Below the pieces are notes generated by a model. It saw only the letters and a list, made by a program, of their open reading frames with translations, had not been told where the DNA came from and made no database searches. A stretch of DNA of 25,852 nucleotides, from IMG/VR virus record IMGVR_UViG_2778261249_000012, positions 1 to 25,852 of that record, one strand, 5' to 3'. Made by a program: the position numbers and the translations under genes. Of the stretch, positions 1 through 22,774 are shown in pieces (the first letter of the stretch is position 1; each line of letters begins with the position of its first letter). The DNA is from a virus (taxonomy: Duplodnaviria; Heunggongvirae; Uroviricota; Caudoviricetes).

Positions 1-1167
1 TCAGGCCTTATGGTGGAAATAATCACTCAGGCGGGAAAACATGCCGCCTTCCCCGACAGATTCCAGGGTAACCAGCGGCCAGTGCGCCACCTGTTTATCA
101 CGGTCGTAAAGTTCAATTTCCCCTACCCGCTGATGGGCGCTAATTGGCGCGGTGAGCTCTTTACCATCAAGGGTATATTTGGCTTTGATATGTGGAATTT
201 CGGCTTTCGGTAGCACCATCCAGAACTCTTGTTCCGTTCCCAGGTCGATATTTTCTTTATCGCCATACCAGATGCGTTCCGTTCCGACCTTTTTCCCACG
301 GTGCAAAATTTGCACCGTAGTAAAGTTTTGTTGCCCCCAACGCAGTAATTTTCTTGCCTCTTCCTCACGACCTTTTGCACTGTCAGCCCCCATTACCACT
401 GCAATGAGACGACGCTGCCCATCTACAGCCGAAGCAATGAGATTAAACCCGGCACCAGAAGTATGACCCGTTTTCAGGCCGTCAACATTCATGGTTTTAT
501 CCCACAACAACCCGTTACGGTTTTGCTGGGTGATACCGTTCCAGGTGAGATTTTTCTCACTGTACATATGATAAAACTCGGGCTCGCCGTGGATGATAGC
601 GCGAGAAAGCACAGCTAAATCATAAGCCGAGCTATGCTGGCCAGGTGCATCCAGACCATGCACTGTTTCAAAATGCGTATCATTGAGATGCAGCTTCTCG
701 GCATAGTTGTTCATCATTTCAACAAACTGCCGTTGCCCACCGGCAATATAGTCAGCCAGAGCAACACAAGCGTCATTTCCGGAATCCACAATTAAACCAC
801 GGCTTAAATCACGTACCGATACGCGATCGCCCTCTTTCAAAAACATCAGTGAAGAACCGACAAACACCGGATTATCTTTCGCCCACGCATCGCGCCCCAC
901 GGTGACAATATCGTCTGGCGTAATGCGATGACTATCGATAGCGCGATCCACGACATAACCCGTCATCAGCTTTGTCAGGCTGGCGGGATTGCGCTGTTGA
1001 TGCTCATTACCCGCGGTGAGGATCTGACCGGTGGTGTAATCCATCAGTACCCAGGACCCGGCATGAATCTGTGGAGGCTGAGGTGAAAAAGGAATGTTTT
1101 CCGCCGCAAAACCAGACGATAAGTTAAAAACGAACAAAGAAGCAGCAATAATAAGACGGCGTTTCAA
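1..1167 (-). CDS. dacD: D-alanyl-D-alanine carboxypeptidase DacD (PBP6b), host gene, complete
   Basis: Translation matches E. coli DacD along its length (signal peptide then SLTKLMT active-site region). The six-frame ORF starts two codons upstream at a TTG; I place the start at the TTG encoding MKRRLII (1167), giving 388 aa. Stop at 1..3. Confidence 0.9.
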   Translation of the reverse strand: MKRRLIIAASLFVFNLSSGFAAENIPFSPQPPQIHAGSWVLMDYTTGQILTAGNEHQQRNPASLTKLMTGYVVDRAIDSHRITPDDIVTVGRDAWAKDNPVFVGSSLMFLKEGDRVSVRDLSRGLIVDSGNDACVALADYIAGGQRQFVEMMNNYAEKLHLNDTHFETVHGLDAPGQHSSAYDLAVLSRAIIHGEPEFYHMYSEKNLTWNGITQQNRNGLLWDKTMNVDGLKTGHTSGAGFNLIASAVDGQRRLIAVVMGADSAKGREEEARKLLRWGQQNFTTVQILHRGKKVGTERIWYGDKENIDLGTEQEFWMVLPKAEIPHIKAKYTLDGKELTAPISAHQRVGEIELYDRDKQVAHWPLVTLESVGEGGMFSRLSDYFHHKA

Positions 1168-1375
1168 CAGCAAACCCTCAGGAGTTTCAAATAGCTGTTC
1201 TTTTTACGGAAATACTTATGAACTGGCTGGAATAAAGTGCAAGAAAATGTGACTACTCTCTCATTTTTATCTGACATGATCTGTTGCCACTCGCTGTCAA
1301 ATTGTTGCGCTAAAGCTGATTAGCACGGTGATATTTGATACTCTGGCAGACAGCAGAAATAACGGATTTAACCTA

Positions 1376-1438
1376 ATGATGAATGACGGTAAGCAACAAT
1401 CTACCTTTTTGTTTCACGATTACGCGCAACACCCCTGA
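1376..1438 (+). pseudogene. sbcB: 5' fragment of exonuclease I gene sbcB, interrupted by prophage insertion
   Basis: ATG ATG AAT GAC GGT AAG CAA CAA TCT ACC TTT TTG TTT CAC GAT TAC translates to MMNDGKQQSTFLFHDY, the SbcB N-terminus as I recall it; the reading frame then diverges and hits TGA at 1436..1438. It is divergent from dacD with a 208-bp spacer. Confidence 0.6.
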
Positions 1439-1445
1439 GAACCGC
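1415..1445. other. approximate prophage attR junction (host-phage boundary)
   Basis: This is the point where the sbcB reading frame stops matching SbcB. The exact core cannot be set without the attL or attB sequence. Confidence 0.3.
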
Positions 1446-1862
1446 CATGAACAAGGGTTTCATGATTTGTGATTTTAGTTTGGTACGCAATTTGGTACAC
1501 AACACAATTTTCACCTCAGTTGGTAGTCATCAAACTCACCATAACGAGCATCGTTGATGATGTATGTGATCACCACAAATATCACATCTGGACTAGTTCC
1601 GTCTTCATGCGCAGGTATCTGTTCATGACTACCTGTCTGCAAACCAGTAATAAGCTATTACAGTGTGATAGTGATGCATCAACTACGATAAATGCAGAGA
1701 AATGATGCAGTGGTGGGCGGATTGGCTTGATGAAAAGGTGGAGTGATCAGCCTTAACCACTATCTAACAGCACAAAGCATTGCAATCCAGTACAAAGCTT
1801 TGTGTGTATAAGTTTTTAATAGTTTATAAATACTTTTGTTTTATTAAAAAAGCACCTAAACA

Positions 1863-3905
1863 TCATATTTTATATTCAACACAAAATATTATACCGTAAG
1901 TGCCTGTTAAATCACCTCTTTTTAACGATGTGCCGTCTGACTTAACAAAAATAACCCCACTGTTTGATATCACTTGAGCCCTTATTAGAGGTGGGACACC
2001 TCCGTTAGAAAAATTAATTTTTCCAGCGCCACTAAATGAATTTGTGATAACAGAGTCAGAAACAGGATTTAAAGGGACTGAAACTACAATTTCATCAGAT
2101 GATGCACCTGTTGATATATCTGTTGTTGCAATTTGACAATTAACAATAACGCGACTTCCCAATACGTTATATTTACCGCTATATGCGCTAAGATTTATAT
2201 TATTTGAGCCATATTTTAAAATTGGTTGATACGTTACATGCGTACTGTTTATATTAAATGATGATGAGTTTCCTTCGAATAATGTTGTTGGAGAAGTTTG
2301 CTTGCTTACATCAAATGCATCTACTGTTATACTTGGAGATGTAGCATTATGAAATGTATTCCCTGTAATAGAAAGTCTCTGGCAGTTAGCACCTCTAAAT
2401 ATTAAGGCGGTAGCACCTGAAAGATAGCTCTGTTCAAAAATATTATTACTTATAGTTACAGAATCAGATTGAGCACCAACATGTACAACATGTAATGTAT
2501 TGTACAATGTGGTATTTCCGGTAACCAGCAATCTCTCGGCGGAACCTGAACATATAACAATACCATGCATATATTGATTATCTTCTGATGGTAAGAAACT
2601 CCTATTGTAAAAATTCCTTAATATATTATTAGAAATTATTGAATCAACTATTCTCTTTGACTCAACAAAACCATACGCAAATGAAGCAATTGATGTATTT
2701 CCGCTAAATAAGGAATGCTGAATAGTGCAGTCTGCCCCAATAAACGCCCTATCCATTTGAAATATATCGTTATTTATAAAGCTGACATCATTTATAAAGT
2801 CTTTTTCAACACCAGATCCTGTGACCCTAATGCCGACCCCAACTGTATCAAACCTTGTATCTGATATATGATAATTTCTCATCCCTGTTTCAGCTGTGTT
2901 GTTACCAGTACCCCAAGAAGACACATCGCATACAATTTCCAGTGCTGTTCCAGAAAAGAACAACAGACCACCTGCGCAATGGAATCCTCTACCATGTAGT
3001 TTAACAATCGTTTCTGCTCCACCTAGATGCGCCGTAGAGTTTATTCTTACATCACAATCTGCTGATCCGTTTGACGGCTTTACTTCCAACAGCGAATAAG
3101 ATCTTTCTGATATGTCAGCGTTTCTTTTTAATGAACCAAGCAGCTCAATGTCTGTAATTATAATGTACCCTACATTGCTAAATATACATGATTCACCATA
3201 TGTGTCCGGTGTAAAATAAATTCTTGTATTAATAGAGCCAGCACCTCTAATCTGCAAACCAAAACCAAGAGATGATGGAATAACCAATTGTTTAACTCGA
3301 TAATTACCTGGTGGGACGTATATTTCTCTTACACCACCATTATAAATTGTAGGTATATTACATATTGCATTTATGGCATCTTGAAAAAAGGATGTGTCAT
3401 CGCTCCCTTTTTGTGTTTTTTCATTCCAATCTCCAATAGCGCCAAAATCTTTGACATTTACAGATACTAGATAGTTATTTAATATATCAATTTCATTACC
3501 AACCGTTGTATCTCTGTGTTTAATAAAATAGGCACCATTCTCACTCTCAAGATCTGCCCTTAACTGATCGGGATCATACTTAAGCACATTAGGAAAATAG
3601 AATTGCTGTGCACCGTACGCATCATAAACAGCCATAGAATGGCCTTGCACAGTAACGAATTTGGCAATCTGTCCGTTATATACCGGATATCCAGCAGCGT
3701 TAATGATGATTGGTTGAGAAACAGGAACATGAGAGCCGTCTTCGTTCTCTACATAAACCGGAATCTGGTTTTCAGTATTTACCGGGTCAGTGTCAATTTT
3801 ACCGATATAAATTTTGCCATTGGCTACGGCTTTAAAAGAACGAGCCATAGTGAAGAGTTGCGAAGGCATACTCACTACAACATTGGCATTTATTGAATCT
3901 GTCAT
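1863..3905 (-). CDS. tailspike protein: P22 gp9-like N-terminal head-binding domain plus a divergent beta-helix receptor-binding domain
   Basis: 680 aa, ATG start with a GGAG RBS. The first ~110 aa ([18 protein letters not shown]...[10 protein letters not shown]...[11 protein letters not shown]...NVLKYDPDQ) match the conserved head-binding domain of P22 and HK620 tailspikes. The remainder is rich in N, S, G and T, consistent with a parallel beta-helix. The DNA for that part is visibly AT-rich. Confidence 0.9.
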
Positions 3906-3962: not shown

Positions 3963-3987
3963 TAAAAAAACCCAGCCGAAGCTGGGT
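3963..3987 (-). terminator. intrinsic terminator between ant and the tailspike gene
   Basis: On the minus strand: ACCCAGC-TTCG-GCTGGGT, a perfect 7-bp stem with a 4-nt loop, followed by a run of 8 T (complement of the A-run at 3963..3970). Confidence 0.7.
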
Positions 3988-4005
3988 CGTTGCGTTGGTT
4001 ATCTG

Positions 4006-4941
4006 TCAGTAGTTATGTACTGAAGGAGGTAATTCTTTATTCTTAAGTCTCATCCATGCGGAAAGATTCGTTGGTCCGTCTGGCTCATTAATATCAACAT
4101 CTCGTGTGTGGTTTATTAAAACGTCTCTCGCCATTCCGATAACATACGAGAACTCATGACCGTAGTCGTAGCATCTGCCGGAATAGTTCGATTGAATTTG
4201 TTTTAATGCCGGATACAGTTCGCGGAATAATGCCTGTGAACGGTTGGCATAATCCCATAGCCATACAAGGCTGTTTGCTTCTTTTGCAGAAAGCTCGTTG
4301 ACTTTCCTCTCTTGTTTGCCGATGAACTCTCCTTCAAGCGGAACGCGAGCTGCAAGTGACAGTGCTTCGGTAAACTGCTCCTCACTAATTTCTTTGTACG
4401 AACATCCAAAATGGGATTTCAGTGACGACCACATGGTGATCATCGCCTTAGCCTGTTTTTCTTTTGGCAGAGACTGACCGCGACTCATGACGAGTTGTTT
4501 AATGGCTTCCTGCTGTTCAGTGGTGATTTTACCCGGCAACGCCTTTTTAACTTTGCGTGGGTTAACTACATGGCCTTTAGTCCAGTAGTCATGCAGCACG
4601 CTAAAGCATTCCTCCTGGTACTGAATCAGTTTATCACGGATGTCAGCACGAACTTTCTCAGGGTTGATGCTGAACAGCCATCCATTTAGCTTCTTCAAAG
4701 GAAGGCAGAGTAGCTTACGAAGCTTCCCATCAGCGGCAACCATGTTCATATGAACACAGTTGAATTTGCTAATCTGCTTCATGAGTTTTGTTTGCTGCGT
4801 TGACCAGCTCATTCCAAGGTTTTCAACGATTGGCTTCATCGCAACATATGCAACTCCGGCAGCCATGGCGGTGATAATTTGCTGACCGTTGAATGGTACG
4901 TAAGAGGTGTTCACTGCTTCTAAAATTGCTATACTATTCAT
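4006..4941 (-). CDS. ant: antirepressor Ant (immI region)
   Basis: The six-frame ORF is 333 aa, but I place the start at the ATG of [11 protein letters not shown] (4941, preceded by GTGGAG), giving 311 aa. It lies directly downstream of arc, as in P22 immI. N-terminal region resembles the P22 antirepressor family. Confidence 0.8.
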
Positions 4942-4973
4942 GTTGGTTTTTCTCCACGGATTTACTGACAACC

Positions 4974-5005
4974 GAAGCCCTGACTGTTCCCGCAGTTGGG
5001 GCTTC
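4974..5005. promoter_or_regulatory. arc-ant intercistronic stem-loop; candidate site of a sar-like antisense RNA or terminator
   Basis: GAAGCCCTGACTG / CAGTTGGGGCTTC imperfect inverted repeat (~13 bp arms, 2 mismatches) in the 68-bp spacer between the arc stop (5010) and ant start (4941). In P22 this spacer encodes the sar antisense RNA that pairs with the ant RBS. Confidence 0.35.
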
Positions 5006-5009
5006 AACT

Positions 5010-5261: not shown

Positions 5262-5516
5262 ATGGCTAGAGACGATCCGCACTTTAACTTCCGTATGCCT
5301 TTGGAAGTAAGAGAAAAATTGAAATTAAGAGCCGAGGCTAACGGAAGGTCAATGAACTCTGAGTTATTACAAATCGTTCAGGATGCACTATCAAAACCAT
5401 CACCGATTACAGGATATCGCGACGAAGCTGAACGCTTGGCTGATCAGCAGGCTGAGCAGTTCAAGGCTATAGTGTTTGAGACACTTAAAAAGATTTATGA
5501 AAAGGATTTGAAATGA
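5262..5516 (+). CDS. mnt: Mnt repressor (maintenance of lysogeny; represses Pant)
   Basis: ATG at 5262 preceded by GGAGTGA. Translates to MARDDPHFNFRMPLEVREKLKLRAEANGRSMNSELLQIVQDALSKPSP... (84 aa), near-identical to P22 Mnt. The 207-aa six-frame ORF is an upstream extension I do not support. Confidence 0.92.
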   Translation: MARDDPHFNFRMPLEVREKLKLRAEANGRSMNSELLQIVQDALSKPSPITGYRDEAERLADQQAEQFKAIVFETLKKIYEKDLK

Positions 5517-5848
5517 GATTTCTATCACTGTTCTTGTTAGCAGTTGTCTCTTCTTCCAGTGCTGAGCTGCGCGAGCTTCAAACGGGTAATGACCTTCTTT
5601 ACAACATTCAACAAGGTAAAAAGGGTGATGATTTTTCATCGCTTTACATTACTGGATATTTGCGCGGAGTAACTGACTCATTGATACTAATTGGTTCTCT
5701 ATGTCCTCCTGATGGCGTTGACATGTATCAATACACCGATATCGTTGAGAAATATCTAAACAAAAACCCAGAATCAAGAAATGAGAGCGCAGTTATACTA
5801 ACCGCCCTAGCAGTAGGAAAAACATTTCCGTGCAAAAAGAATCAATAA
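5513..5848 (+). CDS. small secreted (periplasmic) protein of unknown function; accessory gene in the sieA slot
   Basis: 111 aa. ATG overlaps the mnt stop (ATGA), with AAGGA RBS. N-terminal signal peptide MRFLSLFLLAVVSSSSA, predicted cleavage before ELRE. Two Cys in the mature part (SLCPP and FPCKK). Visibly AT-rich compared with flanking phage genes. Confidence 0.6.
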   Translation: MRFLSLFLLAVVSSSSAELRELQTGNDLLYNIQQGKKGDDFSSLYITGYLRGVTDSLILIGSLCPPDGVDMYQYTDIVEKYLNKNPESRNESAVILTALAVGKTFPCKKNQ

Positions 5849-5863
5849 CAATAAGGGCTTAAA

Positions 5864-6253
5864 ATGAAATTGATTATAGCAATGGCTTTCCTTGTCTTCT
5901 CGTTTTCTGTCTCAGCAGAGTGCTGGGTCGTTGGGGATATGCACGGAATAAGCTATTCAGAACGAAATAATTTTCAACCGGAAGAAGATGGTTTTAGTGG
6001 AACATTCATCATTAAGACAAACGGTGAAGATGCCAGTATCACATATTCTGGGACGGATGCGGGCGGCATGGCTTACAAAGCATTGTCTAAAAACTCCATC
6101 ATTGGAATCGGCGCGAATGGCGAAACTCAACGAGTTATCGACTCATGGGTAATACATCCTAATGGAACAGTTTTAATGTCGAAAACCATTTCTGGTTATG
6201 GGAATATGGATTCAACCAAAGCTTTTGTTGGAAAAGTAAAAAGAAAATGTTAG
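5864..6253 (+). CDS. small secreted (periplasmic) protein of unknown function, likely beta-rich; second gene of the accessory cassette
   Basis: 129 aa. ATG at 5864 with AAGGG RBS, 15 bp after the previous stop. Signal peptide MKLIIAMAFLVFSFSVSA, predicted cleavage before ECW. Cys immediately after the predicted cleavage site and at the C-terminal residue. Convergent with gene 16. Confidence 0.6.
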   Translation: MKLIIAMAFLVFSFSVSAECWVVGDMHGISYSERNNFQPEEDGFSGTFIIKTNGEDASITYSGTDAGGMAYKALSKNSIIGIGANGETQRVIDSWVIHPNGTVLMSKTISGYGNMDSTKAFVGKVKRKC

Positions 6254-22618: not shown

Positions 22619-22694
22619 TGGTGCTGGTTAACGGACTTGAACCGCTACCCATTCGCTTACAAGGCGACTGCTCTACCATTGGAGCTAAACCAGC
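22619..22694 (-). tRNA. tRNA-Thr (anticodon UGU), phage-encoded, in the late leader
   Basis: Hand-folded 76-nt cloverleaf on the minus strand: acceptor GCTGGTT/AACCAGC (7 of 7 bp), D-arm GCTC-CAATGGTA-GAGC, anticodon arm GTCGC-CTTGTAA-GCGAA (U33, anticodon TGT, A37), 5-nt variable loop, T-arm AGCGG-TTCAAGT-CCGTT, discriminator A, encoded CCA. Confidence 0.75.
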
Positions 22695-22699
22695 ATATT

Positions 22700-22774
22700 T
22701 GGCGGGACAGCGTGGACTCGAACCACGATAAGAAGGTTAACAGCCTTCCGTAATGACCTTTATACGACTGACCC
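22700..22774 (-). tRNA. tRNA-Asn-like (anticodon GUU), possibly slightly degenerate
   Basis: 75-nt cloverleaf on the minus strand: acceptor GGGTCAG/CTGTCCC (6 of 7 bp, T-T mismatch at 4:69), weak D-stem (3 bp plus a mismatch) with GG in the loop, anticodon arm GAAGG-CTGTTAA-CCTTC (U33, GTT, A37), T-arm CGTGG-TTCGAGT-CCACG, encoded CCA. Anticodon and T loops are the same as in E. coli tRNA-Asn. Confidence 0.55.

Follow-up and report, generated by a model that had tools for sequence, protein, structure and literature searches.

Which structure on the host surface does the tailspike of a P22-like Escherichia coli prophage attack when most of the protein has no counterpart among the well-known tailspikes, and where did that part come from? 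The receptor-binding module of a tailspike determines the range of strains open to infection by its phage, and such modules also serve as reagents for typing and as enzymes against capsules or LPS. We analyzed this question for one gene in a stretch of DNA of 25,852 nucleotides (the window, meaning that whole stretch). With a probability of roughly 80%, the gene encodes a functional tailspike of the P22 gene-9 type carrying a swapped β-helix depolymerase module that cuts a host surface polysaccharide, most probably the O-antigen.

The gene and its immediate surroundings comprise the following features, in window coordinates:

1863..3905, minus strand: tailspike gene, complete, 680 codons plus stop (list of open reading frames, exact-sequence look-ups).
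4006..5007, minus strand: gene for a P22-type antirepressor (Ant), the upstream neighbor (list of open reading frames; Pfam P22_AR_N and P22_AR_C on the identical locus L009).
3969..3988, minus strand: hairpin resembling an intrinsic terminator, GACCCAGC-TTCG-GCTGGGTT followed by a T run, between ant and the tailspike start codon (consensus scan).
1425..1862, no strand assigned: prophage DNA downstream of the tailspike, up to the prophage-chromosome junction at about 1424 (homology end point, list of open reading frames).
1..1173, minus strand: dacD, a chromosomal host gene flanking the prophage, which places the latter between sbcB and dacD.

The tailspike open reading frame is intact, begins with ATG, encodes 680 amino acids and has its ends exactly at 1863 and 3905. 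An exact-sequence look-up identified the product as RefSeq WP_157916733.1 (“phage tailspike protein [Escherichia coli]”), a record with no functional annotation beyond this generic name. The identical protein also occurs in a few draft assemblies, including GCA_012182895.1 and GCA_002474515.1, and neither the protein nor the assembly accessions were mentioned in the searchable literature. The gene occupies the canonical P22 gene-9 position, after ant and the arc/mnt pair and downstream of the ejection-protein, coat, gp4 and gp10 genes, where it ends a P22-type virion and immI module (gp4, gp10, gp26, ejection proteins, mnt/arc/ant). The Pfam matches on the sequence-identical locus L009 were P22_CoatProtein, P22_Tail-4, Phage_stabilise, P22_gp7, Inj_translocase, Phage_P22_gp16, Arc/Mnt and P22_AR.

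The hairpin at 3969..3988 is strong and lies directly upstream of the tailspike ATG, an arrangement that resembles P22. Late transcription in P22 must read through into gene 9 by late antitermination, and by analogy with P22 the same read-through would occur at this hairpin.

On the other side of the gene, the prophage ends about 440 bp past the tailspike stop codon, as the prophage-free sbcB-dacD site of E. coli strain 165 can be aligned no further than 1424. The list of open reading frames for the intervening segment, 1425..1862, contains no O-antigen-modification gene (gtr or acyltransferase). The first position of the window belongs to the stop codon of chromosomal dacD; from there, chromosomal homology continues across the intergenic sequence and takes in 48 nt at the 5′ end of sbcB (window 1174..1424, L004 26556..26813) before the prophage begins. 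Because the homology covers these 48 nt, the attachment site appears to overlap the start of sbcB. The same site in many other E. coli, including an O111 lineage, is occupied by P22-like prophages with other tailspike modules, some of them adjoining an acyltransferase gene.

Elsewhere in the prophage, two small genes (5513..5848 and 5864..6253, both on the plus strand) form an insertion that separates the gp16 ejection-protein gene from the mnt/arc region. The product of the first belongs to the Rap1a/Tai family (Pfam PF18602) of type VI secretion effector-immunity proteins and looks like an orphan immunity “moron” of the prophage, while that of the second (129 amino acids) has a signal-peptide-like N-terminus and no Pfam match. 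A tRNA-Thr(TGT) and a tRNA-Asn(GTT) lie side by side at 22619..22774 (minus strand), upstream of the lysis/late region.

The tailspike itself is divided as follows:

3564..3905, minus strand: head-binding (tail-attachment) domain, amino acids 1–114 (Pfam PF09008, identity to HK620 and P22).
3465..3563, minus strand: linker and recombination junction, amino acids 115–147 (alignment, megablast end points, GC profile, low pLDDT, translation).
2190..3464, minus strand: right-handed parallel β-helix, the predicted receptor-binding and polysaccharide-cleaving domain, amino acids ~148–572; its N-terminal cap lies at amino acids 149–244 (Pfam PF12708).
1863..2189, minus strand: C-terminal β-sandwich, amino acids ~573–680 plus stop (model strands E459–E564, alignments, translation).

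Residues 4–114 match Pfam PF09008 (Head_binding) over profile positions 3–113 of 113 (E 9.4e-65, 216 bits against a cut-off of 24). A reading made beforehand from the sequence only had described about 110 N-terminal residues as near-identical to the P22 and HK620 tailspikes; this holds for HK620, with 93.6% identity over residues 1–125 (tblastn), but is somewhat generous for P22 gp9, with 75% identity over 110 residues (amino acids 5–114, P22 head-binding fragment). The domain also matches the solved P22 and Sf6 structures 7sg7, 2vky, 8tvr and 1lkt. The best of these, the Sf6 gene 14 protein (7sg7, E 7e-66), aligns as far as amino acid ~225, although identity is high only up to residue ~115. 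This domain of ~114 residues would form a trimer and plug the spike onto the P22-type tail hub.

The rest of the protein is different. Residues 116–680, searched alone against the PDB and phage sequences, gave no match to the receptor-binding domains of P22, HK620 or Sf6, in agreement with the earlier view that the remaining ~570 residues are unlike the P22 tailspike. Alignments to P22 and HK620 end at amino acid ~125–130, and that to Sf6 enters only the β-helix cap and is weak past amino acid ~115. Accordingly, no homology was found to the catalytic β-helices of P22 gp9, Sf6 gp14 or HK620 gp9 (endorhamnosidase, endo-N-acetylglucosaminidase). The sole PDB sequence match of residues 116–680 was a stretch of 55 residues in the Klebsiella phage tail fiber 7y5s (E 1.6e-3), and the sole Pfam match was PF12708 (Pect-lyase_RHGA_epim, 29.1–30.4 bits against a cut-off of 27), which covers only profile positions 2–83 of 213, corresponding to the β-helix cap. 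No PHROG or NCBIfam model matched this part.

The junction between the two parts also shows in the DNA. The GC content is 35.3% in the receptor-binding part (GC3 22.5%), 40.9% in the head-binding part, 48.8% in the rest of the prophage and 49.5% in dacD, and the drop begins at the domain junction, bearing out the AT-richness noted earlier. The split is not a matter of chance: of 5,426 complete E. coli genomes, four carry the gene over its full length (97.8% identity, megablast), and in ~1,130 the match is confined to its first ~350 nt. Homology to those ~1,130 other prophages stops at the linker (megablast end points at nt ~346–372), where the GC content falls too. A linker motif, LRxxLxSxxGA, is common to the window protein and three relatives, some with unrelated adaptors, and it is there that all four proteins converge in the alignment. 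In the structural model, the linker is disordered (low pLDDT at model residues 18–30).

The history of the two parts also differs. Comparison of the window allele with the two further E. coli alleles (Nei-Gojobori) gave dS values of 0.30–0.43 for the head-binding part and 0.04–0.05 for the receptor-binding part. Because synonymous divergence thus falls 7–9-fold past the domain junction, the module is much younger in the E. coli backbones than the adaptor to which it is fused, and the swap is recent. The module is found in three P22-like backbones at three E. coli sites: sbcB/dacD (the window), torT (strain 165 and relatives) and yfdC/mlaA/fadL, where the copy, P0001, adjoins an integrase gene. 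The modular exchange proposed at the outset is therefore supported by the GC drop, the homology break at the linker, the fall in dS and the three backbones. The short conserved linker would serve as the recombination joint at which the module was acquired by horizontal exchange.

Modules 65% identical to this one lie on siphovirus-like contigs (L002 6584..8650 and L003 10001..12067) and have 43–44% GC, compared with 35% in the E. coli prophage copy. Hence, the strong AT bias is a property of the E. coli-prophage branch only and not of the whole module family. A more distant relative, P0005 (module 36% identical), likewise has a P22-type head-binding domain, although a divergent one, and the same linker; judged from this sequence, a P22-type adaptor and this module family came together at least twice, once in a host or phage lineage that is further removed.

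We then predicted the structure of residues 116–680 with AlphaFold2 as a monomer, using an alignment of 75 sequences. The model (mean pLDDT 93, pTM 0.88) consists of the linker, many short β-strands and then the C-terminal β-sandwich. The top Foldseek matches in the PDB were the Dettilon tailspike gp208, Geobacillus virus E2 ORF18 and the HK620 tailspike (TM ~0.35–0.5, 11–15% identity). Along its whole length, the module is matched by two predicted viral proteins in BFVD (TM 0.80 and 0.70), and the other matches there are generic β-helices. The β-helix fold, for which structure prediction had been proposed as the check, is confirmed at the level of the model: a right-handed parallel β-helix with no close solved relative. 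The C-terminal β-sandwich, which the alignments show to be kept to its last residues in most relatives, including gp44 of Acinetobacter phage APK44, likely serves in trimer assembly and stabilization. Together, the ~425-residue β-helix and the ~108-residue β-sandwich would recognize the surface polysaccharide.

An exhaustive profile search of 1.84 billion representative proteins retrieved 196 relatives of the module at E ≤ 1e-3, 80 at E ≤ 1e-10 and 51 at E ≤ 1e-30; we use “family” for the 80 clusters at E ≤ 1e-10, an unnamed depolymerase module like that of APK44 gp44. Members match over profile positions ~1–562, so that the homology is end to end (β-helix and C-terminal domain). Most relatives have 560–950 amino acids and a C-terminal match, behind N-terminal extensions that vary widely in length, and the module is joined to at least three unrelated adaptors. 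In a collection of 5.8 billion proteins, only three relatives shared words with the module. The first is an E. coli cluster at 98% identity (53 member sequences in the 90% cluster); the other two, P0002 and P0003, are 65–66% identical, have unrelated N-termini (one of them Pfam Tail_spike_N, PF18668) and are encoded on siphovirus-like contigs. No entry among 50,697 deposited phage genomes exceeds 32% identity over the module; the hits that came closest were Vibrio phage 1.256.O (26%, with 86% of the module covered) and the Acinetobacter phages APK44 and F70-K44 (29–30%, with 66% covered). The search against characterized tailspikes thus returned no near-identical protein, and the closest was APK44 gp44, at 30% identity.

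APK44 gp44 is the only characterized member of this small, widely dispersed family, to which the module belongs. The recombinant protein depolymerizes the K44 capsule hydrolytically (Popova et al. J Virol 2021, PMC8092837), cutting the α-Leg5Ac7R-(2→6)-β-D-Galp linkage and leaving legionaminic acid at the reducing end (PMC8092837). This activity supports, through homology, a hydrolytic depolymerase function for the family and suggests that the window protein may be an endoglycosidase acting on a host surface polysaccharide. Cutting the polysaccharide in this way would allow the virion to work its way down to the outer membrane. The alternative that the module is a polysaccharide lyase, acting by β-elimination at a uronic acid instead of by hydrolysis, appears quite unlikely. 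As identity is only ~25–30%, the legionaminic-acid specificity of APK44 gp44 is not transferable to the E. coli module.

The family-invariant residues lie in one segment:

2847..3059, minus strand: conserved core and candidate active site, amino acids 283–353 (75-sequence alignment, conservation in APK44 gp44, translation).

D285, G305, R306, R343, R351 and D353 are invariant in 75 family members, D283 and G307 are 99% conserved, and the window protein has all eight. The motifs containing them (ADCDV, HGRGF, TGMRNY and RFD) fall on successive predicted strands, or rungs, of the β-helix. D283, D285 and D353 together with R306, R343 and R351 would line one groove of the β-helix, the probable active site. 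The family profile matched PDB sequences only at the β-helix cap (7y5s and 7chu), and therefore no known active site could be transferred.

Might the spike bind its receptor but be catalytically weak or inactive, or be a relic in a defective prophage? A glutamate and an arginine that are 91% conserved in the family are replaced in the window protein and in P0001–P0003 (G246 and Y188, in alignment columns that looked sound on inspection), and the 90% cluster holds truncated copies of 311–369 amino acids and one of 525 amino acids, some of them labeled partial. However, every fully invariant Asp and Arg is kept, and the open reading frame is intact in a complete-looking P22 virion module. In addition, dN/dS in the module is 0.12–0.18 among E. 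coli alleles, indicating purifying selection, and 0.16 between the siphovirus homologs P0002 and P0003, which share G246/Y188. The recent spread to three backbones also argues for ongoing use, and we consider an inactive spike very improbable.

To which polysaccharide a functional depolymerase would be directed was approached through the hosts. The four complete-genome carriers have an identical protein (WP_077891786.1) at the same torT site. Strains 165, CREC-591 and 779 share a fucose-type O-antigen cluster (gmd-fcl-gmm-manC-manB), for which PGAP gives no serogroup. Its wzx-to-wzy segment occurs in three of the 5,426 complete E. coli genomes, which are these same carriers, and may represent an unnamed O-genotype. 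In the fourth carrier, CE20, the cluster is of the O131 family and includes neuB, neuC and genes for a cytidylyltransferase and a GT52 sialyltransferase; the O131 O-antigen contains Neu5Ac according to references given in PMC7685785 and PMC4379981. The tailspike is present in one of 13 complete O131 genomes.

The attempt to infer the receptor from the host O-antigen hence fails, as two O-antigen clusters occur among four carriers whose counts are not independent: CREC-591 is ST101 (PMC5884925), and the shared torT prophage site suggests a single lineage. The host O-antigen cluster, put forward in the sequence-only reading as a guide to specificity and perhaps serotype, does not reveal the specificity. 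Published ST101 serotypes are themselves heterogeneous (ONT:H21, O154/O100:H25). Most simply, one lineage became lysogenic and its O-antigen locus was exchanged afterwards. The genomes that contain L005 (NZ_CP020509.1 1888001–1909600) and L008 (NZ_CM188248.1 1840001–1868000) share the torT prophage and have different O-antigen clusters (a fucose type and the O131 sialic-acid type), and their nearby dacD, sbmC and yeeA protein alleles also differ. These differences suggest that recombination replaced the O-antigen region on a large scale within one lineage, probably ST101, as for CREC-591.

The occurrence of one protein in hosts with two O-antigen clusters would also fit a receptor other than the LPS O-antigen, namely a capsule or another exopolysaccharide (group 4 or O-antigen capsule, K antigen, colanic acid). 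The only characterized family member is a capsule depolymerase, group 4 capsule genes have been published for an ST101 strain (PMC7355805), and CUS-3 joins a P22-type head-binding domain to a K1 endosialidase, so such adaptors can carry capsule-specific modules. Nonetheless, an O-antigen switch in one clonal lineage after lysogeny explains the two O-types equally well. Searches of phage genomes and with the C-terminal part found no homology of the module to endosialidase catalytic domains of the CUS-3 or K1F type. PHROG 8280, “colanic acid degradation”, matched the full-length protein (E 2e-110) but was lost once the head-binding domain was removed; as the match is driven by the N-terminus, the label is inapplicable to the receptor-binding part. 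Most characterized P22-like phages of E. coli, Shigella and Salmonella, moreover, use the O-antigen. A capsular or other exopolysaccharide target seems fairly unlikely, and the O-antigen is still the most probable substrate.

A bolder proposal combines the activity of APK44 gp44 with the O131 cluster of CE20: the family might consist of β-helix “endo-nonulosonidases” unrelated to the β-propeller sialidases and endosialidases, the three invariant arginines would bind a sialic- or legionaminic-type carboxylate, and the substrate of the E. coli tailspike would be an O-antigen with Neu5Ac, for example O131. Since it derives from one characterized homolog (30% identity) and one O131 host among four, we regard it as highly doubtful.

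The architecture of this tailspike and the way in which it evolved are well known from P22-like phages, and RefSeq already gives the gene a generic annotation. What is new is the placement of its module in a small, essentially unstudied depolymerase family with a conserved Asp/Arg core. The module is rare (the four complete genomes and the 53-member cluster), lacks a close solved structure, and has one characterized relative with an unusual activity, the cleavage of a ketosidic linkage of legionaminic acid, a nonulosonic acid. Its substrate, once determined, would add one more E. coli tailspike specificity and a second data point for the family, leaving the understanding of tailspikes and phage mosaicism unchanged.

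Compared with known systems, the likeness to some proteins stays at the level of the fold. The Dettilon (Det7-like) tailspike gp208 (PDB 6f7k) has 14–17% identity and no homology at the sequence level, making it a fold-level analog only. Pectin-lyase-like enzymes (the AlgE4 epimerase 2pyg, the RbmB lyase 9ozd, GH87, GH110 and GH28) have 10–20% identity, are not phage structural proteins, and their catalytic motifs cannot be recognized in the module by sequence. The HK620 and P22 gp9 tailspikes share with the window protein the head-binding domain, the gene position after ant and the plan of head-binding domain, linker, right-handed β-helix and C-terminal domain. Their receptor-binding parts, in contrast, have no detectable sequence similarity to the module; the structural likeness of HK620 is generic (TM ~0.45, 9–12% identity), and neither its catalytic pair D339/E372 nor the active sites of P22 and Sf6 can be mapped onto the module.

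P0002, P0003 and the Vibrio phage 1.256.O protein AUR98890 carry the same receptor-binding module from end to end, the first two with the G246/Y188 variant as well. They differ in their adaptors, which are unrelated to the P22-type one (PF18668 in P0002, another type in P0003), and, for P0002 and P0003, in the type of phage, as their contigs encode a tail tube, tape-measure chaperones and DNA pol A. Finally, APK44 gp44 (QGK90444.1) has a Friunavirus N-terminal domain as its adaptor, another host (Acinetobacter) and another substrate (the K44 capsule), and it retains the Glu and Arg replaced in the E. coli subclade. Yet it is homologous to the window protein along the whole β-helix and C-terminal domain (tblastn E 2e-29, 30% over 372 amino acids) and shares every family-invariant Asp, Arg and Gly.
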